Positions 5,345 through 34,379 of a stretch of DNA of 64,000 nt are shown in pieces. The stretch lies in NCBI GenBank assembly GCA_973895155.1, contig OZ316892.1, positions 19,913,869-19,977,868 on the forward strand. The letters are read 5' to 3'. The notes beneath the pieces are model-generated. The model saw only the letters and a program-made list of their open reading frames with translations, was not told the DNA's origin and did not search any database. A program made the translations under genes and the position numbers. Within the stretch, counting starts at the first letter, position 1. The number at the start of each line of letters is the position of its first letter. The DNA is from Marsupella aquatica (taxonomy: Eukaryota; Plantae; Marchantiophyta).

Positions 5345-5995
5345 AAAAGTTGAAGGTTCTTTCATTAAAGAGAAAATTCTATTGTATCTTAGACAAGGGG
5401 AACAACACGAGCCTCGTGTAGACAATCAAAAGTCCAATATTCAATAGAGATTACGACTGAATCCACACTAGTAGGCTCTTAAACCTTCTATACATAGATG
5501 CATATTTTGAAATGAGTATTCTTCTTAGAGGAACTTTCTATTGAACGTTGTATTTGGATAGACGAGGGGAACAACACGAGGCTCATGTAGACAATCCAAA
5601 GTCCAATATTCAATACAGTTTACGACTGAATCCACACTAGTAGGCTCTTAAACCTTCTATATAGAGATGGATATTTTGAAATGAGTATTCTTCTTAGAGG
5701 AACTTTCTATTGAACGTTGTATTTGGATAGACGAGGGGAACAACACGAGGCTCATGTAGACAATCAAAAGTCCAAAATTCAATAGAGATTACTACTGAAT
5801 ACACACTAGTAGGCTCTTAAAACTTCTATAGAGAGATGGATATTCTGAAATGAGTATTCTTCTTAGAGGAACTTTCTATTGAATGTTGTATTTAGATAGA
5901 CCAGGGGAACAACACAAGACTCGTGTAGCAAATCAAAAGTCCAAAATTCAATAGAGATTAATACTGAATATACATTAGTAGGCTCTTAAAACTTG
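5345..5995. repeat. 169-bp tandem repeat (~4 units), each carrying the palindrome ACACGAG-N-CTCGTGT or a variant
   Basis: Motif starts at 5405, 5574, 5743 and 5912 (period 169); a further perfect copy lies at 5245-5259. Confidence 0.9.
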
Positions 5996-6344
5996 TACAG
6001 TTAAACCACATCCCAATGGGAAAGACTCAAGCACATACATTCACATATTGACACAATCACTAAAACAAAATTGAAAATGACAGGAGAAAAATTGTACGAG
6101 AAACTGTACTGATGCAGTACTTGAAACAACAGAGCACGCTTTAACGACAGTCCCACCTCGGACTAAAGGCACGAATGAGTCAGGTCTCAAAAAATGACTT
6201 GCACGAAGTGGTCTATCACGTTATATAGTGAGTGGGGGTGCAAGAATTTCAGACTTTCAACTCTACCAGATTGTCGTGTAGTACTTTTTTGTGGCGGCGT
6301 GGTGTGTGGTGAGCAGTCGCCGATAATTAGTAAATTTGGCCTGC

Positions 6345-6977: not shown

Positions 6978-7803
6978 ATGGCAGAGACCGAGGTCATGGC
7001 GAGACCAGTGCTTGCAATTATTCCGACGATCTCGACTGATTGACGACAATTGAAGGCGATTTTGGCGACTATGGGTTTGAAGAAATTATTTTGGTTCCCC
7101 TGGAAAATTTGTGAATTCAGCCTCATCGATGGAGGTGTATGGACGCTGAAGAAGGAATCAACGTTCGTTCGCAACCAAGCGTCTGGACCAAAACATTCAT
7201 AACGGATGTCTATTCGACGTCAACAACCGGGGAAGATTTGCAGAGAGTTGACGGTGAGTCCTGAGCTTATGTTGAATCTTTTTTCGCCCCTGAATCATTC
7301 AAAAGGCGAAATGGTTGGGTAGCTGGAGATTGCAGAGATATGTCTTTGCAACATCTTTTCCGATTCTTGTCACCAATTTTCTACCCTGAAAGTCAATCTC
7401 GGATCACTCTTTCCTTTGCAGCTACAGTAATTTCTTCATTGGAGAGGAAGCAGGAAATAAACTGGACGAAAATTCTACACAGGGTAATTCATACCCAGGT
7501 GCAGAATTTCCGCAACAGATCGATTGCAAGCTGGGAAGCTGAGATGTACTAATTTAGCCCCTTATTTAGCTCACATTTATTATAGGCATAAGTGTCTTCT
7601 GCCTGCGGAAAAGGAACTCTACCGTACTCTCAGAGGGAGTTTTAATCGGGAAGTAGAAGGTTTACTAGAGGACCAAGTGGACCAACCCAATACGACAGTA
7701 GTTGCCCTGTGTGAATTACTTACTTGTGAGGAAGCAGAGTTAGTGGATGAGGTTCGAAGATTGAAAGACTCAGGAGAATCGGCTGAGGGGAAAGAAGAGC
7801 CAA
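6978..7803 (+). pseudogene. Gypsy extra ORF, 5' part (interrupted by the TIR element)
   Basis: FRFLSPIFYPESQSRITLSFAATVISSL...INWTKILH...LAPYLAHIY resembles the extra ORFs of bryophyte Gypsy elements. The frame resumes after 20135 (EEP|ILPQKPEDH...). Confidence 0.55.
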
Positions 7804-8084
7804 ATCAGTCTATTCATTAAAACTGGAAAATTCTTTGATCTTTGGACATTTAGGCACCAAAAAATATATATTTGGGCACAAGAATTGTACATTTGGGCAG
7901 TGGGAGTTGTACACTTGGGCACCAGATGTTGTACATTTGGGGGATCAAGATTATACATAGGAGAAAATGAAATATTAATTTGGATTCTAAAGAAAAACAT
8001 TTGGGTGATAATAATGTAAAATATGTTGGATAAGAAGTAGAACTTACTTACATTGATTCAATTTGACTAATAGAATATAAGTGT

Positions 8085-8257
8085 CTAGTAAAGCTTCAAT
8101 ATGATCTCTACCCATATAACTAGTAAAGCTTCAATTTGATCTCTACCCATATAACTAGTAAAGCTTCAATTTGATCTCTACCCATATAACTAGTAAAGCT
8201 TCAAATAATATGATCTCTACCCATATAACTAGTAAAGCTTCAATATGATCTCTACCC
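8085..8257. repeat. 35-bp subterminal tandem repeat (~5 units)
   Basis: CTAGTAAAGCTTCAAT(A/T)TGATCTCTACCCATATAA at 8085, 8120, 8155, 8190 and ~8229. Confidence 0.9.
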
Positions 8258-8735
8258 TTAGCTAGCTAAATTAACCTTCTACTTAGTTACTAATTGAGAG
8301 CATTTAATATATTAAATTTGAATGATACCTGGCTTACTATCCATTCAGACAAGTAATTTGTTACATTCTAAGCAACTCGAGTTGAAACTAAGGTGTACTA
8401 CTAGATAGTACTAAGAGGCACTCACATCCTATCATGGATATTAAGACTTCATGTAATATATAGTCTGTATTGATATAATAATTAATTAAAGCAAGTAATT
8501 GATAAAGGTATCCAAGTCTAATTACCTCCACCTATTCAAACTAGTATCCCAAAATATTATAATAATTAGTTACTTAAATAGATATACTACTTAGTACTAA
8601 CCAACAGTAAGTACTAAAGACATGTCTGATTCCAAAATAATTGACATAGACTCCCTCACTCTGACATGTCTAATTCCAAACTAAATGACATAGACTCCCT
8701 CACTCTGACAGAGTGACTACTAAAAAACATTTGAC

Positions 8736-11700
8736 TTACTCAACAATCCCTTCCATGTGAGTTTTGAGTGTTTTCAAAATATTCTTGGGAATGGTTAAAC
8801 CTCTATCAATTATATTTTCTTCTCTAGAGCGTGACTTGAATCCATACATAGCAGAATTAGCAAATTGCCAACGTTCAGTGGCACTGTCAAACCCAGGATC
8901 CACCTCCCAAGTCTTAGTGGTCTGAAAGCAACGTGAATATCGCATGATCCGGTGCATCATGCTTACCATGTTTAGGCCTCCACCATTGCACTTGGAACAT
9001 AGGAGCATACCGTGTACTAGTAGGAGAATTCTCATTGCATTGCAAGTCTCCTGAAGGAACTTCATGGTTTGGGTCCACAACACCCAAAGCTCTCACCAAC
9101 CAGAAACGTTCTTTCCCATTCTTCTTTTCCCATTCATCCTCTGGACGGAGAAATACAAAGTGACCCTCTTGAATGTCCTGCAGAGGAATCCAACGTGCAA
9201 GTTCTCGCTCGTGTCGAGCGCCAACAAATGTTGCAGCTTGATCCTCCATCTCTTCCAGGTACTCATTCTGAAGCTCCACCATTTGTGGATTCTGTGTACT
9301 ACTACTAGGCTCCCCCAATGGTTCAGAGGTTCCTGTACTATTAACCTTGTAAATAGTTTCGTGGTTGGTTTTTGGCCAGAATTCATATGTCAATGCTAAT
9401 TGTATTTCTGCCTCCCCTTCAATTGTAAGCTCCCCAGATAATACTTGCACCACCATCTCCCAATATTTCACCAAAGGAAACCGCTCACGATATGCTGTAG
9501 AGGTCTCATCCTTACAACTCTTCTTCAAAAACTCAATGTAACGATTAAGGAATGGGATGATTTCTTCAACCTTGCCTTGTACATCCCCGGAGATGGGTTT
9601 TGCAAATGGTTGACCTTCTGGTAAAATGAGAGCATTGGTGCTGGAATCAGTTCTCCAAATGGACCTTCCGGTTGGAGGGTACCAAGGTTGTTTCACATGT
9701 GCTTTGTATTGATATATTGGAACATTATCTCTCATAGAGAAAAGAAATGCCACTAGTTTTGAGTGACCCTCTATGTCTTTTACCTTGAAAGTTTTCAAAA
9801 ACTCTTTGTAAGCTGCAACCTCTTGGATCAACCGTAGGACAGGATGAATATATGCTTTCACACTCCCAAACCTCAGCCATCAACCCCAAGAGGGTAGAAA
9901 CCTCCTTGTACTTCACTTGGTTGGATACTTTTGAAAACAATGCATCGACATCCTCATGGGTGTGACCAACCATGAGAAACGACATCTGCACTGTTTCAAA
10001 AACCCCTCTACTAACAAGCTCACTGCAAAATGCCATCATGTACTGGTTTTTGTTATCTTTCCCTGAATTATCCATTTGCAAGGTCAGGTGCCTTGGCAAT
10101 GGTTTGAAAGAGGTAGACGTAGCCTTGGGATCAACACCAAAGTCGTCTTGGTCATCTTTAGCTCCTTGAAATCTAGCAATTGAGACTTTTTTGGGTTCTA
10201 AGTAACCTGCGAGACATTCTTCAAAGTCCAAAAGAGATTGAAAAATTGGCCTCGTTGTAGCCCAATATAATCCTTCAAGGAGGTCTCCAAATTTGTCCCC
10301 CTTGTAATCCTCCAGATCTCTAAGGCACTTGGCCAATGATGTCACTGTGAAGTCTGCATCTCCCGGCCAAAGCCCAGTGAAACTGAAGTGAGCATACACT
10401 CCGAGATCCCTTCCATGGGTCAACATCCCAGTGAGCGCAATGGGGAGCGGTTGACCACTACCAGACAATGATTTAGGAGTGGGGACCAACCTAGGGATCC
10501 ATGTCTTGGCCTGGTCCATCTTGTCATGTATAATGCAAAGATAGTTCTCAGGATCCTTCTTCGCAAGAACCCTATGAGCATAGTAAACATATCTCCTAGA
10601 CATTTGCTCACGAAGATGGCGAGCTCTTCTTTCCTCAATCTCTAAACGCTCTTTCTTTCTCTTCTCCCGCATCAACTGATCTTTGAACTCAGTGCAAAGT
10701 GTACACTTTGCAAATGCACTTCCCTTGTGAAAGTCAAAATTCATGAAGGACTCACTCCAGAGTTTATACATAGTGTTTTCACTCACCTTCACATAGCCAT
10801 CTAATTCCATTTTTGAGTATACCTCCTCAAAAATCTCTTTCTTTGTGAAACAAGATGGAAGTCTGTACTCAACCATGTCAGTCCTGTGAGACCCTCCATA
10901 GGGAAATGCAGCATGGGTTCTCCATTTTGGGTTAGAATGGACTCCAACAAAGCACGAGCATGCAAGGTGCTTCCCCGTGTCTTGTGTGAACCCTTGTTTC
11001 CGTGGAATCCAACCGTGCAACCTGTTTCATATTGATTTTTGTAATCATAATACTTGGCAGTGCTGAATCCATGCATTTTAATAAATGCACCCTTGCAAAC
11101 AAGTCTACTTCTTACAACGAAATATCCTTTTGTCTCCACTTCCTTCTCCCTACAGCCAAAAAGAGTGAGAATGTGACTGGTTTTGTTATCGCTTGACATC
11201 CCATGGTATTCCCTCCTTATTGCCTGTAGGTCTTCTCTCGGCATGTTGAGGCAACACTTCAACTTACAACAACCTTCTCTTTGGATAAAGTCAATTTCCT
11301 CCTCTGTGATTTTCAGTATCGCCCGAGACTCCAAGTGCTTCTTCCTTTTTTCATCTGGGTTGACCTTCGTTCTCTTGATGAAATTATACGGGCGCTTCGA
11401 AAACTCAGTGTCACCTTTCATATCTACCTCTAGATGATCTCGACCATCAATAATTGGTTTTGGAGAAACCTCTTCAATGAGATCCAGAAGAAAAATACCC
11501 CTTGATATCAGCAGAAGTGAACGGATGGCCCACCTAACAAGACCAGGCACTCCTGGGGAGATATTTGGGAAAAATAGAGGGTCAATCACGCGTGTGACAA
11601 CAACCCCAACGTGATCTGGTCCAAGAACATCATCATCAATTGCACCTGACTCAAAAGGAACTGTGATGATGCCAACCCCCACTTTGGTCCGATTATCCTC

Positions 11701-12426
11701 AGCATACAATTCCACCTACTCGGTCATCCAATTAGAACGCAAACTATAATCCTTGAAATTATAATTTGAAAAAACATCCCGTGTGGACAGGTCGTTTAGC
11801 ATATCCTGGGAAGAACTCCTCCGAGTAACATCCTTTAAATTCCAGAATACAAAAGTGTTCAATGCTTCTTGAATGGTATCGGCTCCATTGTGAGTAAAGG
11901 GTAACCTCTCCCTTCCTTGAAAAACTTCACATATTTTCACACTAATCCTAGAAGTGCCAAGTCTTTCATTGTGACAGGTCTCATCGGGATTCGTCTTGAA
12001 CACAAATCCACGAGCCACAATCTGATTGCCAATCCAGAGCTCAACTTCATCGCCAGATATAATCGAGTCTCCAAAACTTCCCATCGAAGATTTTTCTGGT
12101 ACAAAACCGGGAACCATATCCTTTGTAGAACAAGAGGCATCCATTTGTGTTGTCGTTGGAGTTGACTGTGACTTCAAATATGCAAAAGAGGCATCCCAAA
12201 TAATGCAGGAGTCGACAGCATCAAACAAGGTCCTGATCGGCGGCAAAGGGTAAGGAATTTCCCGTGATCCCTCATAGCACTTCTCAATGAGAACTCCTAT
12301 ACGATTACTTCCCAAATCAACATTATGCACTGAGTCACCCGGGTCAACCTTGAGGACGGTCCTGCAAGCAACTTCCACTCCGTCAATTACGAGGCAAACC
12401 TTGTCCCCTCGAAAGAAAATCCCCAT
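8736..12426 (-). pseudogene. Sola1/DUF7869-type DDD transposase with three N-terminal Tnp1/En-Spm-like domains; frameshifted
   Basis: Motifs CTLC...H, IIHDKMDQ, LQMDNSGKDNKN and FLMVGHTHEDVDALFS. ORFs 11716, 10801, 9725, 8914 and 8736 are collinear pieces (one stop, about three frameshifts). Confidence 0.8.
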
Positions 12427-13299
12427 TTTGAAAACGTGGTCCAAACTGTTGGATGTAGTTACCTCGAGATGATCTCGAGGTAAAGTGACTACAAAAACAA
12501 ACCAAAAAACCCAAGTGTAGAAGTTTATCCCACAAATTTGTGTGATAGAGAAAATAAGAAACTCTTCTACCTCGAGACGATCTCGAGGTAGAAGAGGGAC
12601 CAAAAACTCCAATATGTAAAAATTCAGAAGTATTTAGCTTGAGACGATCTCGAGGTAAAATATGAAATCTCACTGAATAGCGAATTCAGATTCTATACCT
12701 CCGACTCTCTACAAACTCAATTATGAGAAAGAAAACCGAATGCACCATTAGAAAGAAGGCAAAAGTGAATAAGTTTGAGGATCAAACTTATGACTCGAGA
12801 TGATCTCGAGCCAAAAAGGACATTGTATTTGACAAAGAAACTATTATGAATAATAAGCCACCCAATATAAGAACATATAAATGGCTCTAGATGATCTAGA
12901 GGAATGATTTGGTGCACTTAAGAAAGTAGGCTCCCAGTTTACTTCCAGACACTGAGAAATAGCTTCTAAAAGGCCATCAAATAGAGGGAAAAGGCTTCCA
13001 AATGGATTTTGACCGACACTAGTATAAGCTGAAAAGGTTTGGTTTTCTAAAAGATAGGAGCTCAATTATTTTAGACCTCCTTCAGGGCTTAAAATGAGAA
13101 TTTCTCGAAATATCCTAAACACAAACGTAGAGTCCACAACCCTTGAAAAGAACAACAGAAAGAGATCAGAGCAGAAATCTAGAGCCAAAGAGAGGGAGAG
13201 GGAGAGGGAGAGAGAGGCAAAGGGAGAAACGAGCGAGCAATTAAACGAAATGAGAAGAATGACCCGCTGGAGACCAAAGAGAAGCAATATATAAAACCC

Positions 13300-13560
13300 T
13301 GACATACAAAAAGGCCAATAAGACGGCTTTGTTGAACTTGTGTCACGGCTAAACTCACGGCAGGGCTGAAGTACGGATAACAATAATGACAACACGTGTG
13401 ACCGTAATAATGACTGTACGCACCCAGCAGGTTGCGTGGCAGCCTGCCTGAGCCTGCACGAGCCCTGGCACGCTTGGCACGGCCAAGGCCGACCCCCGAG
13501 GGGCTTATAGTGGTTTCAGGGGTTTTGAATCCCCCATTTTCACATTTGCCTCCTTGCCTC
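13300..13560. promoter_or_regulatory. Putative bidirectional promoter of the TIR element
   Basis: GC-rich core between the divergently oriented transposase (-) and cargo (+) units, with pyrimidine-rich leader-like tracts on each outgoing strand. Confidence 0.35.
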
Positions 13561-15661
13561 TTCGCCTCCTCTCGTCCCTTGCCTCCTTGCCTCTAGATTG
13601 TTTTGCGCTCTTGCCTCGAGATCCTTGTATTAGCCTCGAGATTGAAGAGGGTCGAGATTAGGGATTTTTCCTCAAGATTTTATAGGGTCAAGATTTTGTG
13701 TTTAAGCTCGAGCTTCGATAGGGTCGAGATATTTTGTTTAGGCTTGAGATTTGTTTTTAAGTTCTCAGCCCGTAGCTAGTACGTTCCTCTCTTCACCAGC
13801 CATGTCGACTGTTGTAGATTTCACCAAGGAGGACTTTGCTGAGTACAACCTTGCAACCATTGGCGAAGAGCTTCAGACCCATCTAGACTCAGCGCATCAG
13901 ATCCATCGCACCATTAAACGTAATTCATCATCTTTGTTCTGTTCAGGTTTAACTCGAGATCGTCTCGAGCTTCAATTGGTCCACTTGTTTCTGGATTCCT
14001 TGGATGCAGTTGAGGCTCGAGATGAGATCATCTCGAGTCTATTGATGTTTTCTGCAATACTTTGCTTCAAAATTTGTGATCTATCAATTGATTTTGCATT
14101 TGATGTAAGTGGCATGAGGCTCGAGATCGTCTCGAGCCAATATGCAATTCCTGCATGTGACCTAGTGAGATTTCTTCAAGTTGGAAACCCTTATCCTTCA
14201 AAAGTGAAACATCATATCCAAAAAATCTAAAATTTCCTTCCTCCAGGGACTTCTGTACCCTCCAACTCGTTCTGATTATTGACATCCGAATGGGTTTGTG
14301 GGTATCAGAAGTCAATGGAGAAAGTGGATTTTAATCATTGATTGAATATGATGTTCATTGTTGAATATGATATTTGGATCACTCGTTTGACATGTTAGGC
14401 TTGAGATCATCTCGAGCCAAATATATCTCTCACCATCTTCCTTTATGGTCATTCGTATCCCTTGGCCAATTTCTTCCAGTTGGAAGGACTCCATGTCGTC
14501 AATTACTAATATCCTTTTCATTGTGATCCAAGCTTGCCTTTTGGACCACTTTCTTAGTCCTCCAACTCATTTGTGAAGATGACAAACCACTGAGTTAGAG
14601 GGTTTTGAATGTGGTCGAATAGGTGACATTGGATCATTCTTAAAAATGTTGTTCGTTAAATTTGACTGGTTCATGATATGCAATGGAATAAAACCTCAAC
14701 TAATATATATGAGGATCGAGATCTTTTAAACAGATGGTGGCTCGAGATCATCTTGATTTCCTAACTATTGTGTTATCTTTTTAGATTTCTTGGGTTTGAA
14801 ATCTCTTTTTAAATTCCACGGATGAAATGGCATTGGAACATGTCAGACTATTAAACTTAAAAGGAAGATCGAGATTATCTCGAGCCACCTATTTGTTTCT
14901 TGGTTTTGTAGTACATGTTTCTGACAATTGCTACATTTTGGCTGTACCAGGTGCAAAATTGGGATCGCCTAATTTGGTAGTCGAAGATGAACATGCAATC
15001 GAGGTTTCCTGCCCTGGACAGGGTTTATTTGGATTCTGTTGGGCCATTGAGCTTGCTAAAACTGAAGACATGGAAGGAACTATTATTTGTGTGAAGACGA
15101 GGTCTCCATCAGTCGATCCTCTAGTGTGCAGCCTTCTAGGGCCTGTTGTTTCTATTGTGACGAGTAACGGTAAGGACATGGTTTTGACGGGGGAGAACCA
15201 CGAGACAGGGAAGTGGGCTCTAATTAGACTTCACGCCAAAAACTACTCTTGCGATCTTAACATTGAACGTGCAGCCAGGAAATAACTGAGCGTGATATCA
15301 ATGGGGTTCTTCCCCGAGGGTTTTACTACAAGTAATTTGCTAGAAGATACTCCTATATCTGGAGCGGACATAATTTTTGGATTCCTTTATTGTTGAAAGT
15401 ATGGGTTTGATCGTGATGATGCATTCACGACTCCTTTCACGTGGAAGGTTTTGAGACTAATGTCGGAATCCAAATTGGGGGAGTTTGAATCCATATCCCC
15501 TGATTTTGTGTTTGGAGCCGAAGAATTTGACGAGGATGCTTGTAAAAAGTGGGTGTTGTCTCATCGGAGACAAACAGGTAAATTGAAATCTGTAGCTGCG
15601 GGAGACAAGACGTCTGGTTTGGACAAAAAGGAAGCAAAGGTGTCTCAAAAGAGGAAGAGGG

Positions 15662-16425
15662 TTGAGAAACCCGAAAGCAAAGCGAAGAAAGAAGGCTCCA
15701 CCTCAAAAAAAGTCCGCGCCGCCCAAGGTAGATCTCATTCCGGCATCTTCCTTGGGTGTGAATGCACATACCGATGATGATGGCACTCCAGGAGATGCTC
15801 CGGGAGAAAAGAGCGTTAAGGAAGGAGCCGAAGTTCTTAAGGAGATTGAGGAGTATTACACATTTGGCATGAAGGAAACTTTTGACATTCCTGTCACTAG
15901 TATAGATTCGCCGTCTGCAGTTTTGGTATATAGGATGTTCAGTAAAGACCATGCCATGGAGGTCGCAAAATCCATGGTTAGAAACCCTGGAATGGTACCA
16001 GCTGTGGCGGATTTAATTCCGTATTCACGAGAGAGTTTGCAGTTGCTCCATTATGAGAATACTGCTGAGGATCGAAAGGAGTTTGAGTGGGGTGTTAAGA
16101 ATAAGAAGGTGCAGTTCCTTGCAATCAATGGACAACACTCGGCAAAGGCAGCTGTTTGGATCATAGGTTGGGCTAAGAGCGATGCAAAGTTGAAGGAGGT
16201 CGCAAAGAGTCTGCAATAGCAAAAGTCACAAATTCTTTCGGACAGAACTCCAAGAACAATACTTGCTCAACACTCACAAAGGGAAAATGTTGTTAATAAG
16301 ACCATGGAGTATGAGTCCTGTTTTCTTGATACTATGGTCCATGCCCGTCGACAGTTTGACAAGTGTGGCCATGCGGAGAGACCCGTGATTGGGTCCAATA
16401 GACTAACGGATCATCAAACGTTCCA
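15662..16425 (+). pseudogene. ParB/Srx (DGQHR-like) domain of transposon cargo protein
   Basis: IPVTSIDSP...YRMFSKDHAMEVAKSMVRNP...VQFLAINGQHSAKAA fits the ParB N-terminal pattern (R..F....L.ELA.SI....; I.GxHR, here GQHS). Preceded by a K-rich NLS-like region; one in-frame TAG. Confidence 0.55.
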
Positions 16426-17062
16426 GGTAAATTTGAACTCAAATCCACTTCTAGCTCGAGATTGTCTCGAGCCTTGAGGTCAAGTTTCTGTATTTGATTT
16501 ATCTTCATGTATTCTCCCATAAATTTTACCATAGTTCCTTAATTCTACCTCAAGATCGTCTCGAGCCTCAGATTTTCTTTGTACTGTTTGGATCAGGATT
16601 TTATGGCCCTTGCCAAAATAACAACTGGAAAATTCAATCTCCGGAATTTTTTTGGTTGCTATTTTCGGATGAGAACCTCTTCCGAACTTGGAGACAAATG
16701 TGCATCGATTGGGTCAAGGGACTTCTTCCGGATGGTCTAGGGGAGTTAGGTTCAAAAATAAATGGGAAATCCCGGACAACAAAAATGATTACGCCGGCAT
16801 TGTTTAGATGCTTTGAAGGAGACCTGAGTAGTGACGACATTCTGAAAGTTTTTACTGCCGTTCAACAACAGAAGGTTTTATTGAAGAAAGACCCAGCCAA
16901 CAAATCTGATGTTCAATCAATGAGTGATATGGCTCATACTTTCAAAGTCATGACCAAGCTGAGGGCAAAAATTGTGGAGTACTTCATTTTGAAGTATCCG
17001 GATCGGTTTGCCAATTCACTCACTTGGTTTGAGCTAACTCAATTTTTGCCTGCATTTATGAG

Positions 17063-17300
17063 ATGGTCGGTCGGCGTGGTGGCTTTGTAAATCCGAGAGC
17101 AAAGCCTTTGCGAATGATAAAACGTCTTGTTGATTATTTCTCGTGCCCAGGTCATACAGTGTTGGATTTCTTCTCTGGAGGACAGACATTGAAAGCTTGT
17201 GTCATTCTTGGTCGGGATTGTTTTGTGTATTCGGACACAGCTCAAGAGATGGAATTCATAGAAGCCTTTGCTCAGCTCCTTCATGACAACAAGCAGGTTT
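17063..17300 (+). pseudogene. C-terminal half (motifs X-I-II) of a beta-class N4-cytosine/N6-adenine DNA methyltransferase
   Basis: NPRAKPLRMIKRLVDYFSCPGHTVLDFFSGGQTLKACVILGRDCF matches the N6_N4_Mtase consensus HPTxKPxxLxxRLIxxxSxPGDxVLDPFxGSGTTxxAAxxLGR. I found no DPPY/SPPY motif IV upstream, and the frame changes abruptly at ~17060. Confidence 0.7.
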
Positions 17301-18375
17301 TATATGTGCCACCCAAGGAGTCGTTACCATCTGAGGAAATTACTGCCGGTCCCCTTGTTGTAATAGAAGAGGCGGCCTTAGACATAGCTCCGGTGGAAGC
17401 CAGTGTTTATGAGGAAGTATTTGTGAAGAATTTAGAGCATCGCAAAATGGAGGGCCCAAAAATCACAAGCTACATGGAAGAGGAGGGTGAAATACTGCCT
17501 GAATTTGGAAATGATGCTTGAGATGATCTCGACGTTCCAGGTGTTCCTTCATCGGGTGACCTTGGGGATGCACAACGTGAACAACAGTCTTCAACCTTGG
17601 ATGTTGGCTGGGAATCCACCTTGCTCAATTAGCCAACCAATTCCAAGCCCTCCTCAACTGGATGAGATTTTCTCTACTAAGAAAGCTAGTGGCTGCCATA
17701 CTCCCCCTCAGGACGAGGCAGGTGCATCGTCCTCTCCCTTGGACCAAATGTTTTGCGCTTCAAAGAATAAGCTTGTTTTCACAGATTCTTCTACTGGAAG
17801 CCCCGTAATTCTCCCTTTTGTTAGGAAACCGGGGACTGAAATTGGTAGAACTGGTTACAAATCACTCAAAGCAAGTGCTACTCATTATGTTTGGACTGAT
17901 GGACCGTCAAAAGGTCAACAAGTCAGTATAGAGCAGTCTGAGAAGATTATTCGATCTAGAAAGTATAGGAAGGATAAGTTCAAATTAGTGCCAGTTTGGT
18001 CTGAGCCAGCTCTTGTTGAGACCCTTCTCGGAGGGATAAATTTGGACATCCAAAACCAACTAGGAGATAACCTTCTAGATGAATTTGGGTCTTTCAGCAT
18101 GTGAGGTTGAAACCCAAGTTATTTTGAACAGTCCTGAAATTCAGCCGTCTAAATTATTATGTCTACCTTCACAGAAATAGGCGGGCCCTTACTAGTTGTG
18201 GAGTGCATCGACAATAATCTCCAAAGATGTCCTGAGATTTCTTCAACTACTGACCTTCAACCAACAATAGGTATGACGTTGACTGTTGTTCATTCACTTG
18301 TGATGCTCGAGATCGTCTCGAGCATTCCTTTGTTTTATCTCCCACAATTCTAACATTGGTGTTCCTTCTTTGCAG

Positions 18376-19433
18376 GACCCTTGCCTCCACTTCACGGTCC
18401 GATCAGACGGAAGCTATTGATTCTTGACCTCAACAAAATGTGTTGGGATTCTGTCAAAATGCCAAGTTCCGGACCGCGCCGTAGTGCAACAAGTGTCAAG
18501 GGTGTCCACTGGGGGAGACGTGGAGGGTTTAACTTTATGTATGTTGAGCGACCCCATCTTCACGAGTTCTTAATTGCAGCTTTTTCATTATTTGATGTTG
18601 CCATTTGGACTTGTGCAAGGAAATCCAGGACGGATGAAATGATTCATTTGATCTTCAGTCAAGAAGAGTGAGAGCAATTCAAGTTTATTCTCACACAAGA
18701 AGATACATTCGATACTGGAATCCAGAGGCCTAACATTACCAATGGGAAGGCAAATATTCATTTGAAGGATTTGAGGGTGGTTTGGAAACGTTATGGTGGA
18801 TTATACGACGAAACTAATACACTCCTTCTTGATGACACTCCAATGAAGGCATTTGCGAATCCAGAGAATTGTGGGTTGTTTCCTTCCTCATTTTCGCATC
18901 ACTCCACGGATGATACATTCTTTCCAGAAATACTATGGCCTATGCTCAGGAAATTGTATCATGCCTTCAATCTTCAGCACTACCTTTTTATCAATCATCC
19001 AAAGTGGTCTATGATAAATGTTTTAGCGGACAGAGATCAACAGGCTGCCATTTATGCGTTGTTGACAAAGCGGTGGGGTAGTATGGTATGGGTTCATTCG
19101 GTTATGCATACAGTCTTGGATGTCATAGCGGACAAAATTCCTTGGGATGTCAAGAATGAAGTACAACAATTACCACCAATGGAGGAATTGACGGAGGAGG
19201 CGATCAACGACCTTGCAAAGACGTTAATTGGATATCAATACACAGGACCCTACAGAGACAATCATCGGGGATTTGTTTCAGAAGTCTTGAGGTGTAGGGA
19301 CCTCACCACGAAGTTCTGGAATAGGAAGCCTCTCAATTTCTGCAATCGCGATATGAAATATGACCCATCAGGGTCTAGATTTACTTGCTCAAATGAATTC
19401 TGCGGGGTGGAGGAGCATGAGATTTGGGTCTAG
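18376..19433 (+). pseudogene. FCP1/NIF-family HAD phosphatase domain (transposon cargo)
   Basis: RKLLILDLNK...YVERPHLHEFL...FDVAIWT...KDLRVVW...NTLLLDDTPMKAFANP; one in-frame TGA; GT-AG intron ~18271-18375 links it to an upstream exon. Confidence 0.8.
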
Positions 19434-20135
19434 ATTATCTCGACCCTACACTGAAGAGTTACAATGTGAGTTGTAGATATACATATTCTTACTCAAAAAT
19501 AAGTGAAGCTATGCGTACTATCCATTTGAGTCTAGATGTTGTTGATCCTCTTTTACTTGTAGATATGTTCTCAGAAAAAGGTTATTTGGGTCTCGACCCT
19601 ATACAAAGGGAATAGCTAGAGATATAGATTCAACAACGGGTCAAAATTATGTGGACCCTACATTTGGGTCGAGATAATCTCGACATAGATTTTTACATAG
19701 TAATTGATATACATTCAACAACCGGTCAAAACCATCTAGAGCCTGCATTGGGGCAGACGTGGTCTCGACCCTATAAAAATAGATTTTTTACTTTTATAAT
19801 ACATCACTAGTTTACCTTCCCTGTTTGTGTAACTTGGTTATCACGGGTCATTTGAATTTATTATATTGTCTTATTCTATTTTTTCATTGTTTATATTGTA
19901 TATAATAAGAACACTTTATTGTCTTTTAATTAATAAGTATTAATAATTGATAACTGAATTATTTAATTAATAATTTGGGCATTAGAATTGTAATTTTAGA
20001 CCTCAAAAAGTGTATATTTGGCCACTAAAATATATGCTTTTGGGGAACAAGTTATAGAACTTTTGGGGGTAAAATAATAAATTTGAAGGTCAACTTCTGG
20101 ACTAGAGAAATTCCAGTTTTAATGAATAGGGTGAT

Positions 20136-21984
20136 CCAATTCTTCCCCAAAAACCGGAGGATCATGCTAATGAAGACGTTCCTCCAGCTAGTGCAACGGG
20201 GTCAGAGCACTCCACACCACCTTGACTCTCACCTACATTCAGCAATGATGAACAAGTACCTGATCATGTTCAAGGTAACTCTTCTCTTTGAGTGAATGAT
20301 AAAATCGAGATGCATGCAGACGTTGAGGACTGTCCAGGAGAGTTACCTCCATCGTATATTACTGCAATGGATGATATGGGGGAAATATCACGAAGTCCTG
20401 CTTTACTTCCAATTGAAGTAAGTAGCAATGCTTTAGTTGCTTTGCAGGATTGTAATTCGGAAGATTCTCCTAGTCCAACTCCATATATAGAGGTAGCTTC
20501 TCCCTTACAACTCTCAGCTGAATCCCTAGAAGCATCATGCTCAGAGTTTGTGAGGCTGTCTAAGGCTGATTCAGAGGACGAAATAGTAGATGTAGAAGGA
20601 GTAGCTGAACAACCAACTCCACCTAATTTGGTCACGACATTTCCTATGTGGCCGACCCCCGAAACCACAATATCAGTTGCTTTGATTATGTATGAGGAGT
20701 TAGCAGAAGCATTGGAGAGAATAGGACCTCCTCGGACACTCCCATCTGTTGATTGGGTTTCTCCATCTTATCTTCCAGGAGGAGAGATTGCTTGAGTCTC
20801 AACCCAGTTTACAAACCACTCCATCTCTTGGGCCTTCAAGCAACTTAGGGATACCTAAGACCATGAGTATATCTCCACCCATACCTCTGTTTGGAACACC
20901 TGATTTGGCATTTAGCTCTGCATCAGCTTCTATCTTACTAGATTCAAGCAGAGATAAGGGTACTCGGATATCACTTGTAGATGAGAGTTCACCTATTAAG
21001 GAGAAATTTCAAGTGACACACTCAAAGACCTTGGAAAAGATTGCGACGAGCAACAAGCCGACAAATCTTTCTTGAAGCAACAGTTTTGGAGCAGCAGAAG
21101 CCAACCATTGTATCAAAGAGGAATTCTTCTCCATCCACAGAACCTCATAAAGATGCAAGAAGTCAGGGAGAAGTTTTGCCAAGCATAGAGGTTGAAAGAG
21201 AGTACCTCACTTCAGCACCAATGGACCTGACCAAAGAAAGCCTTGATGCTCCAGCTACAGAAGAGCATGAACTTTTGAGATGTAGTATTCCAGAACTTCC
21301 TGTGCCTACATCTCCATTGTTCCTTCACGCTTGCCTGATAGAGAGTCTGTGATTCCCTCCTCAGACTCGAATATTATTTTCCGTTGGATAGGAGCTCTCA
21401 GTGATGGGGAAGATGAAGATGACCCTAAGATCATCAGAGTACCACCTAAACTTTGGCAACAACAGGTACTTCCTCCACCAGTTCCTATACCTAATCTTGC
21501 TTCTATTCACAGATGGGAAAAGAAAGATTTTTGGATAGCTTTCCGACATTTAGAGATGGAAAGTATATATCAACAACAGCAGATTTTACCTGGTATGTAT
21601 CACGGAGGTATTCGAACGTTGATTCATACATATAAGCCTGGTAAGGCTGTTCCTCCCATCGACAAGGATAGAAGATATAAATTTTTGGAGTATGAAATTT
21701 GGTGTTGGGTATATGTCAGGCTCCGACGTGCTGAAGCTCCTTTTCCGCCAATAGCTCCAGAATTTCCTTGGCCATACCAATACTCTGTCTGGGTCTGCCA
21801 TGAAGGGTATGCTATTCTGCATAAGTACGAGAAAGAGCTTGTTAAGTTACGAGAACAGTTGATACGGAATAAGGCTATGAACTCTTCTGCTCAAGGGTAT
21901 AAGTCACTTAGGAGATTAGTAAGGTTACCTACTCCTCCTTCATGGCCGGACGTAGTCACTCTAAAAGGGTTATTGAGTAGATAG
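20136..21984 (+). pseudogene. Gypsy extra ORF, 3' part (S/P/E-rich linker and W-rich C-terminal domain)
   Basis: In frame with 7524-7803 once the insertion is removed; continues through ORFs 20292, 20749, 21041 and 21331 with stops and frameshifts. Confidence 0.55.
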
Positions 21985-23777: not shown

Positions 23778-24440
23778 CATCAAAAGATCAGCTTCAAACT
23801 CTGTTGTGCCGACTGTGTAGACAGAAGTTTGATTTCATTTTGGTTTTGTTGTTGACGATTCGTGGTAGCTCGGATCGGGTGTTGTTATTGAACGGATCGC
23901 TGGTATCTCGATCTATTGCAAGTTGGTGCGACACTTGCGTAGTTCAAGTGAAGCTTCAAGTTGTTGTTGCTAAGTTGTGGTTTTGGAGTTGCGGTCTTCA
24001 TCGATATGCAGTGTTGCATCGTGGAGGATTGATTGTGTGATCGACAAGCGAATGTTGCTGTCGACAATTGTGTGTGAGACAGATGATGGTGTCTGGTCCT
24101 ATTTTGTGAAGGGAAAGTAGTCGGATGTGCGACTCTTTGTGGTTTTGATTGAGGTGGTTCAATTGGGAGCCCGATAGTTGATTATGTTTACAATTTTTGT
24201 AGGATGCAGTTCTGATTTGCATCAAGTTCCTTGTTGATGGATAGTGCGTTTCTATGAAGGAAACGACGTTGAATGTTGGTGAATTGTGTTGGCGGCGCGC
24301 GACAAGATAAGGCACCGCAGAGAGGCAAGGCGGCTGTGACTTAGGGCACAGAGGAAACGACAAATACTGAATAGTGATTTTACCGTCAATTGCGGCGTGT
24401 TTAGCGCATGACTTGAGCAAAGAGAGTTTTGGTGGGGAGG

Positions 24441-24861
24441 CACCCACAGCCCGCGGCCTGTGACCAATTCATCTTGGTTGTTGGAGTTGGCACCCACAGC
24501 CCACGGGCTGTGACCTCTTGCAGCTTGGCTAGCACTCACAGTCCACGGCCTGTGGCCTCTCATAGTTTGGTTGTGTGGGCTAGCACCCACAGCCCACGGC
24601 CTGTGGCCTCTCATAGTTTGGTTGTGTGGGTTGGCACCCACAGCCCACGGCCTGTGGCCTCTTGTAGTTTGGTTGCGTGGGTAGTCACCCACAGCCCACG
24701 GCTTGTGGCCGATTCATCTTGGTTGTGTGGGTTGGCACCCACAGCCCACGGCCTGTGGCCTCTTGAAGTTTGGTTGCGTGGGTAGTCACCCACAGCCCAC
24801 GGCCTGTGGCTGATTCATCTTGTTTGTGTGGGTAGGTACCCACAGCCCACGGCATGTGGCC
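24441..24861 (+). repeat. ~50-bp tandem array (9 units) of CACCCACAGCCCACGGCCTGTGG in the 5' UTR
   Basis: Units at 24441, 24491, 24533, 24584, 24635, 24686, 24736, 24787 and 24837; imperfect dyad CCACAGCC/GGC(C)TGTGG. Confidence 0.9.
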
Positions 24862-24939
24862 TAGGGTTTTGGAATCACGGAGTCTTCCAATAATGCAAAG
24901 CTACTTGGTGAACAACGGACTGGTTTCACTCGAAGTGGA

Positions 24940-25908
24940 GTGCAGTTTCGGCCAATGACATTGCTAGCAGATACTAGTAGAGCTTCAGATAGTGATTCTG
25001 ACGAGGGCTCTGTAGTCAACTCTCCTCATCATCAGGTAGTTGCACCATTGTTGTGGGATATGGAGGAGACGTATGGGTCCACTAAGGGCCCTAGAAGATA
25101 CTCTGGTGCAGTTGGCACAATTGATTTGGATGATTTCATCCAAGAGTTTGATACGTGGTGTGATATGCAAACGATGCATAACGCCACATTGTTTACACCT
25201 TTCATGGCATGGAAAGGGTTGTTTCAGCATTTGGAGGGTCCACCCATGGATGATTACCATGAGTTTTGGAAGACCCATTTGGCTGATATTGAGATATGGA
25301 GACAACATTGGTCACCAAACTATGTGTCCATCACTTACGGCACAAGTGCGGTTTCTCAACCTGTTGCCCCGGCTGTTGCTTCTTCTAGTAGCACTAGCCA
25401 GAGTGGCACTCCACCAGTATCCACTGTTACTCCTACCAGTGCAATTGTGGGTGGGAGTGGAGTTGTGCCAACATTTAACCCTGTGGTGAAGTTCTTTGAT
25501 GTGTTGAAGCAGAACTACCAGGGTGTGAGAACTGATAAGTTGAAGGGTCTTCAAGATTTTCAGCGCAAGACTGGAGAGAGTCTACGCGAGGCATACACTC
25601 GTATGCGAAGATTAATTACAATCACCAAGGGAGTGACAGAGGCCCAAGCAGTTCAATTTTGGTATGCAATTTTGGATAGAGAGTTGCGGCGTAGAGTAAG
25701 AGACGCCACTCTATTGAGGGATTCAGATCCCACATTGGCTATTGTTTTTGCACTAGCCGAGCGCATTGAGCTCAATATGGTGAATGAGAAGGTGGTGACT
25801 TCCGGATTTGTCAAGGAAGGCTCACCAAAGGTTGCAATCTACACCCACACCGCAACCTACTATAAGGAAGAGCCAGAGGGAGAAGCCTACAACACCGGAA
25901 TCTACTAG
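24940..25908 (+). CDS. gag: Gag (capsid region)
   Basis: RYSG...DLDDFIQEFDTW...LQDFQRKTGESLREAYTRMRRL is a retrotransposon gag signature; continues by frameshift into the zinc-knuckle frame. Confidence 0.8.
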   Translation: MQFRPMTLLADTSRASDSDSDEGSVVNSPHHQVVAPLLWDMEETYGSTKGPRRYSGAVGTIDLDDFIQEFDTWCDMQTMHNATLFTPFMAWKGLFQHLEGPPMDDYHEFWKTHLADIEIWRQHWSPNYVSITYGTSAVSQPVAPAVASSSSTSQSGTPPVSTVTPTSAIVGGSGVVPTFNPVVKFFDVLKQNYQGVRTDKLKGLQDFQRKTGESLREAYTRMRRLITITKGVTEAQAVQFWYAILDRELRRRVRDATLLRDSDPTLAIVFALAERIELNMVNEKVVTSGFVKEGSPKVAIYTHTATYYKEEPEGEAYNTGIY

Positions 25909-28801
25909 TCAGAGACCTGTGCCCTCCTATGCTGGACAGCAGTCAGGATGTTGGACTTGTGGTGGGGATCATGCACAAAGATATTGCCCAGATAATAGAG
26001 GGTCCGGAGGGGCATCTATGCCCGATCAACGATTATGTGATCATTGTGGAGTTTCTGGTCACACCAAAGATAGGTGTTTTGTACTCCATCCTAAACTACG
26101 ACGGGGAGGATCGCGTACATATGATCAGGGAAGAGGAGGTAGAGGTGGTGGTGGTGGACGAGGGATGCCACATGCAGGGAGACAACAAGGTGATGCTCTT
26201 GCCACTACCATAGATCCAAAAGATGCAAAGATTGCTCAATTGGAGCAACAACTAGCTGCCATGGCCAGTTCTCAGGTTAGACCTACTTCTGGTGATGGAG
26301 CTTCTACATCTTATGGAGCTGACGGAGACTTGGCCACCATGGGATTCATGTGTGGCACTGCCCATGTTGATGCATCGGCAGCTTTGACTAGAGGAGCAAC
26401 CAAAGTCCTTGAGCCCCGAGGAGCAATGGTAGAGTTGGATCCTCAAAGGGGGGAGGTTCGTCAACAAACAAAGCTTCCTCAATCGTTTACGTTGTTAGAG
26501 GCAGTTCACACTACCTCTATGAACCCGGTTAAGACAAATCCAAGTGTTGATAAGTCGGTAAAATTGGATGATGTTGCAGCAGGTCTAGCAAGTACCTTGT
26601 TGGGGGCGGCCACTAACATTGTGCGCACCCCGTTATTTTCAGCAACAGATATATTGGCATTGGGAGTTAGTCCAGCTGAAGTGTTCAGATTGGCGGCCAC
26701 ATTATGTGAAGACACTCTAGTTGTTGCTTCTCGTGCAGAGACAATGCATAATTCTGAAGTTGTGGAGTTGATTCCACCTATTGCTAGTGGTGAAACATGG
26801 CAAGCAGCAGCGGCGAGGTTGATGGAGTTACCAGCACGCCCTGCCTTTGAGAGAACTAGGTTTAAACCTAGTGTGGTATCATTGGATAATCGGAGTGGTA
26901 TCTTCCGATTAGTTGGGCCTTTTGGAGCAATATACCAGCCAGAACGAGTGTTATTGGATACTAGTGCTCAACCCTTGATGTTGGGTAAGTCTGCGATACA
27001 AGGATTGGGATTGTGTCCAGATGATTTGGAGGAGTGTCCTTTTCCCATTCAGACTTCATTGGGAGGACCTACACCCAAACAGCATATCACCAGACGAGCA
27101 CTTGAACTTAGGATTCAAGAGGATCATCCAAAGGATAACTCACGGATCCAGGCTCAAGCTATTTTGACTAAAGCTGAGTCGTATGATGTGTTAGTGGGAT
27201 GTACAGTACTTTATCCTATGGGATTTGTTCTTGATTTTTGGGATGAGTCGGTGTCGTATCGACCCGATTGGCAATCTGGAGATGCTCGATTGAGCCAATT
27301 GCCAGTGCGATTTAGTGGACCTGTGGGAGGTCCTAAATCTGCACCATTGTCTTTGGCAGCATTCAGTAGTTTGATTACTGGATCTGATGAGTTGATTGAA
27401 GGTAATGCACATGCAGCAGATGTTCCGGCAATGGAGGAGCCACGTGAGGAACACATGATGGGTGTATTACCTGTTGATACCATTGTGGCACCAGTATGGG
27501 GTACTGGAGAGGCCTTGCAACAAAATGCGACCCAATTGATACATGATGCCTGGTGTCATGCTTTTACACCGGAGTCAGGAGCACAACAGTCTTTTGCAGA
27601 TGGACCGGTGACTCTTTCACCATTGGATACCACTCCTATTGTGTGGCAGTATCCAGAGGAGGGTATTTGTTTGTTGGATTTATTTGGTGGGATTAACATT
27701 GGATTGGCTACTATTCTTCAAGCAGGAATTCCTGTGCGTTGTTACTTGTACGTGGAAAATGATGAGATAACACGGAGGATCTCACTACGTCATGTAGCGA
27801 TGTTGGTGGAACGTTATCCACATTTGTTGCCAGTGGATGCCGTTTGTGGTTATCAGCATGCATTGCCTGCTGATATTTCATTATTGGGGGTGGATTATTT
27901 GGATCGTGTTGGCCCCATTGATTTGGTGATTGCGGGTTGGCCATGTCAGGGTCAATCTCGGGCTGGAATTGGACATGGATTTCATGATCCAAGATCTGCA
28001 TTATTTTGGGAGATGTTACGTGTGTTGCACCATCTCCAGATGCATCAGACACATTCTCCTGCATACATTTTGGAGAATGTCCCATTATTGGGTGATGATC
28101 GTCATCGAATTGTTGCTAGTATTCATCAGGTTCGATCTTGGATTGGACCTGTTGTGTTATTGGATGCTGCACGTGTGGGTTCTCATGCACATCGTCCACG
28201 ATTATGGTGGACTAACTTGTTACCATGTGAGGTCTTAAAGCGAGCATTTGATGGTGTACCTCGCTTAGCAACCTTATTGGTGGATAGTATTTTGGATCCA
28301 GGGCGTCGTGCACAAAGTGTTACCCAATCTGATCGAACCCCATTGGCAGTGGTGAATATTGTTGGGCGTCCGCGTTGTGCATTACCCACTTTTGTGAGCC
28401 ATTCTGCTTCATACGCATTTCGAGCAGGTGGCCCTGGACTTGTGTTGGATACAGCTCTACAACAACTAGTAGAGCCTACCGCTAATGAGAGAGAGCGGGC
28501 TATGGGATTTTTGACTAGCACCACTGCAGTGGCCTCGGTGTCGGAGCATTCACGTTGTCAAGTCCTTGGTCAAGCCATGGATTTGAATTGCTTGACTTGG
28601 ATTATCAGCTTGGGATTAGCTGAACAATTGCAAATGCGCACTTCTAATGTTACAGATCGTCCATTGGTGAGCTTGCGGCCTATCGAGACAGTAGCGGCCA
28701 CAGTTGGGGGCGAGCAAATGATTGATGGACCTATGGCAAGATTGGCCAAGGTAGAACATATTGTTGAGCAGAAGGAGGTTGCTCAAACTATTGATAAATA
28801 G
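25808..28801 (+). CDS. Gag zinc knuckles + aspartic protease + C5-cytosine DNA methyltransferase (DNMT domain ~27660-28620)
   Basis: Knuckles CWTCGGDHAQRYC and CDHCGVSGHTKDRC; protease VLLDTSA. DNMT motifs in canonical order: I LDLFGGI, II YVEND, IV AGWPCQG, VI ILENV, VIII HAHRPRLWWTNL, IX ERERAMGF, X LGQAMD. Confidence 0.92.
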   Translation: MSRKAHQRLQSTPTPQPTIRKSQREKPTTPESTSQRPVPSYAGQQSGCWTCGGDHAQRYCPDNRGSGGASMPDQRLCDHCGVSGHTKDRCFVLHPKLRRGGSRTYDQGRGGRGGGGGRGMPHAGRQQGDALATTIDPKDAKIAQLEQQLAAMASSQVRPTSGDGASTSYGADGDLATMGFMCGTAHVDASAALTRGATKVLEPRGAMVELDPQRGEVRQQTKLPQSFTLLEAVHTTSMNPVKTNPSVDKSVKLDDVAAGLASTLLGAATNIVRTPLFSATDILALGVSPAEVFRLAATLCEDTLVVASRAETMHNSEVVELIPPIASGETWQAAAARLMELPARPAFERTRFKPSVVSLDNRSGIFRLVGPFGAIYQPERVLLDTSAQPLMLGKSAIQGLGLCPDDLEECPFPIQTSLGGPTPKQHITRRALELRIQEDHPKDNSRIQAQAILTKAESYDVLVGCTVLYPMGFVLDFWDESVSYRPDWQSGDARLSQLPVRFSGPVGGPKSAPLSLAAFSSLITGSDELIEGNAHAADVPAMEEPREEHMMGVLPVDTIVAPVWGTGEALQQNATQLIHDAWCHAFTPESGAQQSFADGPVTLSPLDTTPIVWQYPEEGICLLDLFGGINIGLATILQAGIPVRCYLYVENDEITRRISLRHVAMLVERYPHLLPVDAVCGYQHALPADISLLGVDYLDRVGPIDLVIAGWPCQGQSRAGIGHGFHDPRSALFWEMLRVLHHLQMHQTHSPAYILENVPLLGDDRHRIVASIHQVRSWIGPVVLLDAARVGSHAHRPRLWWTNLLPCEVLKRAFDGVPRLATLLVDSILDPGRRAQSVTQSDRTPLAVVNIVGRPRCALPTFVSHSASYAFRAGGPGLVLDTALQQLVEPTANERERAMGFLTSTTAVASVSEHSRCQVLGQAMDLNCLTWIISLGLAEQLQMRTSNVTDRPLVSLRPIETVAATVGGEQMIDGPMARLAKVEHIVEQKEVAQTIDK

Positions 28802-28825
28802 CAACGAGCGACTGACTCTTCCATC

Positions 28826-29005
28826 CATAGCCCACGGCTTGTGGCCTCTTCATCTCCAAAGGAAGACGTCACAGTTTTGATGGAGAGTCACAGCCCACGG
28901 CTTGTGGCCTCTTCAACTCCAACGGAAGATGTCACAACTTTGAAGGAGAGTCACAGCCCGCGGCTTGTGACCTCTTCAACTCCAAAGGAAGATGTCACAG
29001 CTTTG
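28826..29005 (+). repeat. 63-bp in-frame tandem repeat (x3) between DNMT and RT carrying the same CACAGCCCACGGCTTGTGG motif as the 5' UTR array
   Basis: Motif at 28826, 28889 and 28952; encodes SHSPRLVASSxPxEDVT. Confidence 0.9.
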
Positions 29006-31531: not shown

Positions 31532-31612
31532 TGTGGCAATTGTTGTGGATTTGGACGATCCCGATGTTTGGGTCAAGGTGTGTTAAGAAGGGCATGAGTT
31601 TTTGAGAGAGTC

Positions 31613-32086
31613 ATGCCCATGGCCTTTGACAACCTTGCCATTGCCCAACATCGTGATACTTTGAGGTATGCCACTATTCGTGGAGGAGGTTATCGTGCGA
31701 GGATTCGACGGTTTCATCCTGGTGATTTTGTTTATTTGCAGCAAACAACACCCACGACACTTGATGTGACCGCAGGTTGGACAATCTTACGTGTGCGTGA
31801 AGTGTTATCTTCTGGTGTCCTAATGTTGGAAGGACGTGATGGTATGGTTTGGAAGGATCATGTGCGCAATTGTGCACCATGTCATCTTTCAAACATTGAC
31901 GGTACTGTAGATCCAAGTTTGGCTCATGTTCGTGCCGGTTTGAAGTGTATGTTGTGTGGATCTGCTCAAGGAGCAGCCACTATGTTGATTTGTGATAAGT
32001 GTTCTAGAGGATGGCACATGTCGTGTTTAACACCACCATTAGAGGTGATTCCTAGTGGATCATGGTTGTGTCCTCAATGTCGGTGA
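31613..32086 (+). CDS. Integrase C-terminal region ending in a PHD finger
   Basis: CMLC...MLICDKCSRGWHMSCLTPPLEVIPSGSWLCPQC is a C4HC3 PHD. Confidence 0.9.
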   Translation: MPMAFDNLAIAQHRDTLRYATIRGGGYRARIRRFHPGDFVYLQQTTPTTLDVTAGWTILRVREVLSSGVLMLEGRDGMVWKDHVRNCAPCHLSNIDGTVDPSLAHVRAGLKCMLCGSAQGAATMLICDKCSRGWHMSCLTPPLEVIPSGSWLCPQCR

Positions 32087-33947: not shown

Positions 33948-34379
33948 ATATAGAGTTAACCAAGAAAATGTCTCTATATGAATACTCCATCCAATGGTTT
34001 ATCGAATAGGGGTAGTTCTAGTTAACCCTTGAATTAGGGGGAGGGCCTTTTGGCCCTACTGTCTTGAACTTCCCGCAGAGGAACTTGTAAGGAAAGTAAA
34101 GCTCGGGGGCCTCACTCTAAAAGGGGTCCCATAACACGCTCGACGTTTTTAGCTATTAAACACCCTAAAAAATAAAAAATAAAAAAGTTTTTTTGAACTA
34201 TTTTTTTACCCCTATCTTTTTGGAATATTCTAAAAATATTCCCAAAAATCATTTCTAAAACCCTATCTTCTCTTATAATTCTCAAAATTGGATTTAAAAA
34301 ACCCTAATGTTCTTCTATAGAAATTTAAAAGTATTCTTCTCAACCCAATAAACAAACCCTAGGTATACTTAGTTTCGCG

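Follow-up and report, generated by a model that had tools for sequence, protein, structure and literature searches.

The stretch analyzed here is a 64,000-nucleotide window of the genome of the liverwort Marsupella aquatica (GenBank assembly GCA_973895155.1, contig OZ316892.1, positions 19,913,869 to 19,977,868 of the forward strand), and it contains a 12.3-kb cut-and-paste transposon at 7804-20135 that carries, opposite its transposase, a gene for a multidomain fusion protein. In order, the predicted protein comprises a PH-like fold, a ParB/Srx fold, a helical domain, a beta-class amino-methyltransferase fold, and an FCP1-like domain. The reading that we favor, with a probability of about 0.55, is that this fusion is a helper that binds its own decayed, probably Sola-type element rather than an enzyme that writes methyl marks. 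The protein likely binds a palindrome dispersed through the element, instead of writing marks, because its relatives lack the usual catalytic motif. All three enzyme-like domains have altered motifs in the sequences that were read.

The window copy retains only part of the methyltransferase fold. Motifs X through I, at ~17093-17227, match PF01555 above the cut-off (E 1.8e-7), as the original prediction, made from the DNA letters and open reading frames (ORFs), had proposed; the match covers profile positions 163-208 of 221 only. In four proteins of the liverwort Riccia sorocarpa, two landmarks are separated by 249-256 amino acids, whereas in the window the same landmarks are adjacent; nor does a profile of the N-terminal half of the methyltransferase find anything there. 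Thus, motif IV has been deleted from the window copy. Its loss near 17060 had been foreseen, although as a simple frame break, and about 250 codons are in fact missing. Among the joints listed from sequencing-run contigs, none falls at this junction. The beta-class motif order (IV, target-recognition domain, X, I) is complete in Riccia protein P0083, of which the window keeps only X to II, and residues 416-661 of P0083 (Atlas model) match PF01555 proteins with a template modeling (TM) score of 0.67 over 218 residues; the Atlas feature matches are all below 0.9 and serve as leads only. No beta-class methyltransferase is among the VIA matches of our own model of P0083, in which the methyltransferase part is poorly modeled.

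Motif IV of the Riccia proteins departs from the usual form. The strand that carries it, LVFLD(L/V)THP or LVFADFARS, was aligned with eight bacterial and phage enzymes, seven of which have DPPY and one DIPY. Among 28 Riccia proteins, the motif reads DLTHP in six, DVTHP in four, DFARS in one, and GLLPS in one, and 16 gave no pattern match. The pattern [DNS]PP[YFW] occurs in none of the 12 proteins in which the strand was found, nor in any of 97 related proteins, most of which end before the methyltransferase domain. Further, motif I is one residue short (DFFSG-G instead of DPFxGSG), and the acidic residue (motif II) after the next strand is missing at the aligned place; because both changes are seen in the window as well as in Riccia, they belong to the window family too. 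We infer that the methyltransferase fold is inactive as a catalyst or strongly altered, and that it would serve to bind or flip bases.

It had originally been suggested that this family writes N4-methylcytosine (4mC) or N6-methyladenine (6mA). It now seems unlikely that the protein is an active amino-methyltransferase marking its element at or close to the palindrome, whether by a normal motif IV in the lost segment or by a noncanonical D-x-x-H site. The fold is whole in a relative, HP..K and TVLDFF are strongly conserved, and a comparable protein from Ectocarpus (discussed below) is described as a predicted maker of 4mC or 6mA. In D-x-x-H the aspartate is kept and a ring side chain takes the place of the base-stacking tyrosine, and Riccia subfamilies that are ~50% identical have all retained D(L/V)THP; therefore, noncanonical catalysis is possible. 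However, the Ser/Asp, first Pro, and Tyr of motif IV grip the target base in N4CMT and CcrM (PMC10406627), the canonical motif is absent from every readable relative (0/12, versus DPPY in 7/8 controls), and the short motif I and missing acidic residue are found in the window copy itself. The writing claim is weakened by these results, and no more than weakened, because the motif-IV readings come from relatives only ~25-39% identical to the window protein rather than from its own family.

With the ParB-like part as the query, 75 matches were found among 1.84 billion representatives, and these include intact open frames of ~500 amino acids over exon 2. Word-based protein searches with the helical part and with the C-terminal half of the methyltransferase were blank, which for this method is weak evidence. 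The best match, P0002 (510 amino acids, 66% identical), covers exon 2 and stops at the same donor site, and its model (mean predicted local distance difference test score, pLDDT, of 77) has two folded domains. The first is weakly PH-like (VIA Z up to 4.9). The second is modeled as ParB/Srx: the top Foldseek matches are Noc/ParB, with probabilities of 1.0-0.93 and a best E of 3e-3 (all E >0.001), and the top seven VIA matches are all ParB/Srx, with Z of 5.6-7.7. For two homologue models, the top Foldseek and VIA matches are ParB, Noc, KorB, PadC, and Srx. A ParB/Srx N-terminal fold in the cargo, first suspected from its AINGQHS box, is thus supported by structure models; Pfam gives no ParB match. 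ParB CTPase clamps and DGQHR domains carry an arginine in their GxxR or DGQHR box. The box was found in 64 of the 97 related proteins, as SGQHS in 54, and an arginine follows the histidine in none of the 64. Scans with a ParB pattern gave 81 matches in metagenome contigs and 16 in viral contigs, with no match confirmed in either set.

The third enzyme-like domain is altered as well. FCP1/SCP (NIF) phosphatases have the catalytic motif DxDx[TV]. PF03031 matches the NIF phosphatase domain that had been noticed in the cargo as two pieces with a stop between them (E 8e-8 and 1e-5). This is above the cut-off, as are the PF03031 matches in P0084, P0093, and P0098. The motif reads DLNK in the window and DVEG in four Riccia proteins, and DxDx[TV] is found in none of the window and Riccia sequences read.

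A candidate for the sequence that the fusion recognizes is a 17-bp palindrome, unremarked in the original prediction. It occurs 16 times in the element, versus 0.14 occurrences expected for the whole window, and nowhere else in the window. Five copies lie upstream of the transposase, five in intron 1 of the cargo gene, two in intron 2, one in intron 4, and one downstream of the cargo, making 14 noncoding copies, and two are in coding sequence. ParB proteins bind inverted repeats of this kind, and by analogy the palindrome is a likely candidate for a parS-like self-binding site.

Under the self-binding reading, the ParB fold and helical domain would dock on the element's own palindromes as ParB does on parS, and the methylase and phosphatase folds would act as binding modules. 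The bound protein would likely hold the element in an open state or poised to move, and could counter host silencing near the two promoters and the introns, much as VANC acts on VANDAL elements, which are Mutator-like; the FCP1-like domain may engage the transcription machinery. A role against host silencing is plausible. Confidence falls along these steps, from a dead or altered methyltransferase, to recognition of the palindrome, to counter-silencing with the FCP1-like domain. We regard as doubtful a more ambitious version, in which early land plants would harbor a transposon-borne, ParB-parS-like system of self-recognition, with the fusion seated on the family palindrome, the D-x-x-H fold reading or writing a mark other than 5-methylcytosine (5mC), and the FCP1-like domain recruiting transcription. 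If true, plants would have, next to VANC, a second sequence-specific anti-silencing system, which might also be a mobile source of amino-methylase folds of the prokaryotic type.

Several observations weigh against the self-binding reading, in addition to the retained aspartate and D(L/V)THP, and the distance of the relatives, considered above. Our own model of P0083 has pLDDT <50 over most of the methyltransferase part. All VIA Z-scores are <8. The best structural match of the helical domain behind the ParB fold, pNOB8 ParB-N, is loose (Z 6.5, root-mean-square deviation 4.8, 195 residues) and does not establish a helix-turn-helix. With palindromes masked, the observed/expected CpG ratio is 0.57 in the cargo, 0.54 in a nearby Gypsy element, and 0.39 in the transposase core; because the cargo resembles the Gypsy element and only the transposase core is lower, there is no clear protection footprint. 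Finally, ParB or methyltransferase parts were found at 0 of 80 metagenome loci with related transposases, only 15 of which are at least 8 kb, so at least some such elements do without the cargo.

The CpG result also suits a fusion that helps transposition rather than opposing silencing, with a ParB-like clamp on the palindromes that compacts the 12-kb element or brings the transposase to its ends. This is quite unlikely in our view. The ParB/Noc fold and the spread of palindromes along a long element speak for it, but the palindromes are internal, near promoters and in introns, and the ends have different repeats; the ParB arginine is absent; and a deletion form that joins 15995 to 20047, with most of the cargo gone, occurs in contigs of two runs, though such a form could move in trans. 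The alteration of all three enzyme-like motifs, together with the broken or partial state of the window copy and of many Riccia models, could also mean that the cargo is a passenger in decay that serves no function today, with the palindromes bound by the transposase or by a host factor instead. However, domain order and altered motifs are kept between families ~25-39% identical, exon 2 is intact in some representatives, and palindromes lie in the cargo's own introns, all of which makes a mere passenger very improbable.

The named homologues of the cargo are all from liverworts (Riccia sorocarpa and Calypogeia). In a profile search 26 Riccia proteins match. In P0084 and P0093 the ParB-like, helical, methyltransferase, linker, and NIF parts follow one another as they do in the window, and Calypogeia P0012 has the ParB and helical parts in common with it. 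Because the same fusion recurs in Riccia gene models, it is, to judge from predicted proteins, a long-established family rather than a single capture event. The accessible part of the Riccia genome paper contains no mention of a methyltransferase or of Sola. Read contigs in four of the six listed runs (three organism codes, three studies) span all 30 bins and fall into several identity classes, and some of them are free of the window copy's frame-breaking indels at 15685 and 10905. No RNA run is among those listed, a result that is silent on expression. On both grounds, the element likely belongs to a multi-copy family with less damaged members, and the occurrence of the cargo in other copies and species, as the original prediction would have it, is borne out by these contigs and by the Riccia fusion models.

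As originally described, the element has a transposase on one strand and an intron-containing cargo on the other, an arrangement now backed by its terminal inverted repeats (TIRs), the CCAA flanks, the DUF7869 match, and GT..AG introns. The predicted cargo gene, on the plus strand at 13802-19433, has five exons and four GT..AG introns. Of the extent first given for it, 15400-19433, the end agrees with this model, and the start is probably 13802 instead. Three exon junctions are in phase, that between exons 3 and 4 is not, and the window copy cannot make a whole protein.

The TIRs are 25 nt long and 92% complementary in the inverted-repeat listing, and CCAA directly outside both constitutes a 4-bp target-site duplication (TSD), as read from one copy only. 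A 2-bp TSD (AT), with ends at 7806 and 20133, CACCC at the right and CAGTC at the left, is formally possible; the 4-bp TSD is favored because the 2-bp reading leaves the CCAA agreement to chance. The transposase core is DUF7869 (Pfam, E 5e-38), and we take its motifs DN..K.NKN and GHT...D to be Sola-like. EnSpm-type enzymes have C(2)C and H(3-4)H between the second and last acidic motifs (PMC12730594), and EnSpm-1_Ec32 from Ectocarpus ends in CACCC at the right, as the window element does under the 2-bp reading. No CxxC occurs in the 49-residue stretch QMDNS...GHTHEDVDALFS between the second and last acidic motifs of the window transposase, the catalytic residues being placed around this stretch by our own inference. 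Because CxxC is lacking and the TSD is 4 bp, as in Sola1-1_Ec32 of Ectocarpus, the element is probably Sola-type; an EnSpm-like reading of the ends (CACCC, 2-bp TSD) was dropped in view of CCAA on both sides and the lack of CxxC. No paper mentioning DUF7869 was found in an open-access literature search. The N-terminal part of the transposase, 11719-12426 on the minus strand, has apparent repeated small domains for which Pfam is blank, and which by eye we take to be like a Tnp1/DUF8039-type domain.

When 26 of the 80 metagenome loci were scanned for TIRs and TSDs, ends were legible only for L032, whose TSD is compatible with 4 bp and also with 2, 6, or 8. This 9.7-kb element (L032:90-9746) has inverted ends of ~130 bp, a DUF7869 transposase, a Tudor_5-like match downstream, and two opposite-strand ORFs that by eye are SET-domain-like and 2-oxoglutarate (2OG)-oxygenase-like, with Pfam blank for both; other chromatin cargo may travel with the same transposase family. 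A weak NIF match in L088 (E 0.0015) was discounted because the locus is decayed and the match is on its transposase strand. Around the 4-bp core, the empty target site shows partial symmetry in the window (GAAGAG-CCAA-TTCTTC) and full symmetry in L032 (AACCAA-CATT-TTGGTT), suggesting a preference for palindromic targets. An open frame in the flanks (7488-7803 and 20136 onward) is seemingly interrupted by the element, and the flank is probably another repeat.

Table 1. Parts of the transposon and of its cargo gene, in window coordinates
Feature	Position	Strand	Basis or remark
Left target-site duplication, CCAA	7800-7803		Same 4-mer at 20136-20139
Left TIR	7804-7828	+	25 nt, 92%
Left subterminal repeats, units ~22 bp apart; tandem array ~35 bp	7842-8260		Repeat listing
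Probably Sola-type transposase (DUF7869) in five pieces out of frame with one another; acidic motifs near 10531, 10078, 9967; ends approximate	8739-12426	-	ORFs, Pfam
16 dispersed palindrome copies, CTCGAGA-N3-TCTCGAG (at most 2 mismatches)	11428-19684		Motif count
Predicted cargo exon 1, joined in phase to exon 2; gene-model support only	13802-13919	+	Splice-site model
Cargo exon 2: PH-like ~15031-15576, basic linker, ParB/Srx fold ~15833-16396, GQHS box 16121-16141; stops and frameshift	14951-16426	+	Homologues, models
Cargo exon 3, first part: helical domain after ParB fold	16597-17057	+	36% identical to Calypogeia P0012
Junction; ~250 codons (methyltransferase motifs IV-VIII) of Riccia relatives missing	17045-17065	+	Landmark spacing, profile
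C-terminal half of beta-class amino-methyltransferase fold: motifs X, I, II; DFFSGG	17063-17300	+	Pfam, alignments
Rest of exon 3: low-complexity linker, stops and frameshifts	17301-18100	+	ORFs, gene model
Predicted cargo exon 4, joined in phase to exon 5 but not to exon 3	18175-18270	+	Gene model
Cargo exon 5: NIF/FCP1-like HAD domain with DLNK for DxDx[TV], interrupted by one stop, then the C-terminal tail	18376-19433	+	Pfam, ORFs
Right TIR	20111-20135	-	Inverted-repeat listing
Right target-site duplication, CCAA	20136-20139		Direct comparison of flanks

Elsewhere in the window are a decayed Ty3/Gypsy-type retrotransposon at 24865-32083 (plus strand), which has RNase H, integrase, and, at the C terminus, a PHD finger, and whose long terminal repeats may include an identical 300-nt repeat at 23447 and 32399, and a foldback element at 36008-38349, whose several long inverted arms include one pair of 208 nt at 97% and which is nested in another inverted pair at ~34142-37674. 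Tandem arrays with units of 44-169 nt lie at 5390-5997, 24432-24874, 40021-40173, 60368-60709, and 63268-63505.

Parallels to the fusion come from phages, host enzymes, and other transposons. Phage ParB-methyltransferase fusions (PF02195 and PF01555) have the same domain order, and two Atlas clusters match the P0083 methyltransferase model (TM 0.65 and 0.63); the window cargo is unlike them in its introns, its ParB box without arginine, and its lack of DPPY, and tblastn of P0083 against a phage collection gave no match. Marchantia DN4MT1 and bdelloid N4CMT also represent a prokaryotic-type beta-class amino-methyltransferase fold in a eukaryote, but these are active host enzymes with (T)SPPY (bioRxiv 2021.02.12.428880; PMC10406627), whereas SPPY is in none of the window's relatives that were read. 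ParB-linked and retrotransposon-borne adenine methyltransferases are described in PMC4738411 and bioRxiv 2026.05.21.726589, with nothing in the accessible parts of either that matches the window element. VANC, for which anti-silencing has been shown experimentally, binds noncoding parts of its own VANDAL elements (PMC10398659), and the likeness is that of an element-encoded protein placed on noncoding motifs of its own element. For the window element both the binding and the effect are proposals, and the transposon superfamily is another one.

The closest parallels in design are algal. In Bostrychia, giant DNA transposons of the Plavaka type (PAG2/PAG3) carry a PF01555 methylase and a ParB-like domain, and PAG3 has inverted-repeat arrays beside its ParB-like gene, which may be compared with the window palindromes (bioRxiv 2025.02.11.637652); 7BNR, the best ParB structure for the Bostrychia protein, is also among the Foldseek matches of a window homologue. 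The Bostrychia domains are in separate genes (methyltransferase with SET; ParB with 2OG oxygenase) on EnSpm/Plavaka elements with tandem arrays, whereas in the window one gene encodes the whole fusion, FCP1-like domain included, the palindromes are dispersed, and the transposase is a DUF7869 protein. Sola1-1_Ec32 of the brown alga Ectocarpus is likewise a giant TIR transposon with a 4-bp TSD and, opposite its transposase, a gene for a ParB-like and N4C/N6A methyltransferase protein that is proposed to bind its own element (PMC12477816); similar proteins in green and red algae are cited there. Compared by description only, it differs in its length (21.5 kb), its 282-bp TIR, and its 1104-amino-acid protein, a predicted active methyltransferase for which the accessible description mentions no FCP1-like or PH-like part, whereas the window element belongs to a land plant, is 12.3 kb long with a 25-bp TIR, and has added domains and altered catalytic motifs.

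Thus, the ParB-amino-methyltransferase transposon design is already known from algae (PMC12477816). No land-plant case was found in the open-access literature; Iyer et al. 2011, outside that scope, may cover plants. The algal pairs have been proposed to bind and mark their own elements, and the accessible accounts report a test in none of them. With defined ends, a transposase, and a site present 16 times, the window element makes the idea of self-binding testable with one protein and one oligonucleotide. Relative to these systems, the window adds a land-plant case in which the element is complete, PH-like and FCP1-like parts, catalytic signatures lost in the window and its relatives alike, and an exactly defined candidate site, and the question moves from the writing of 4mC or 6mA to the role of a DPPY-less methylase fold on a transposon.

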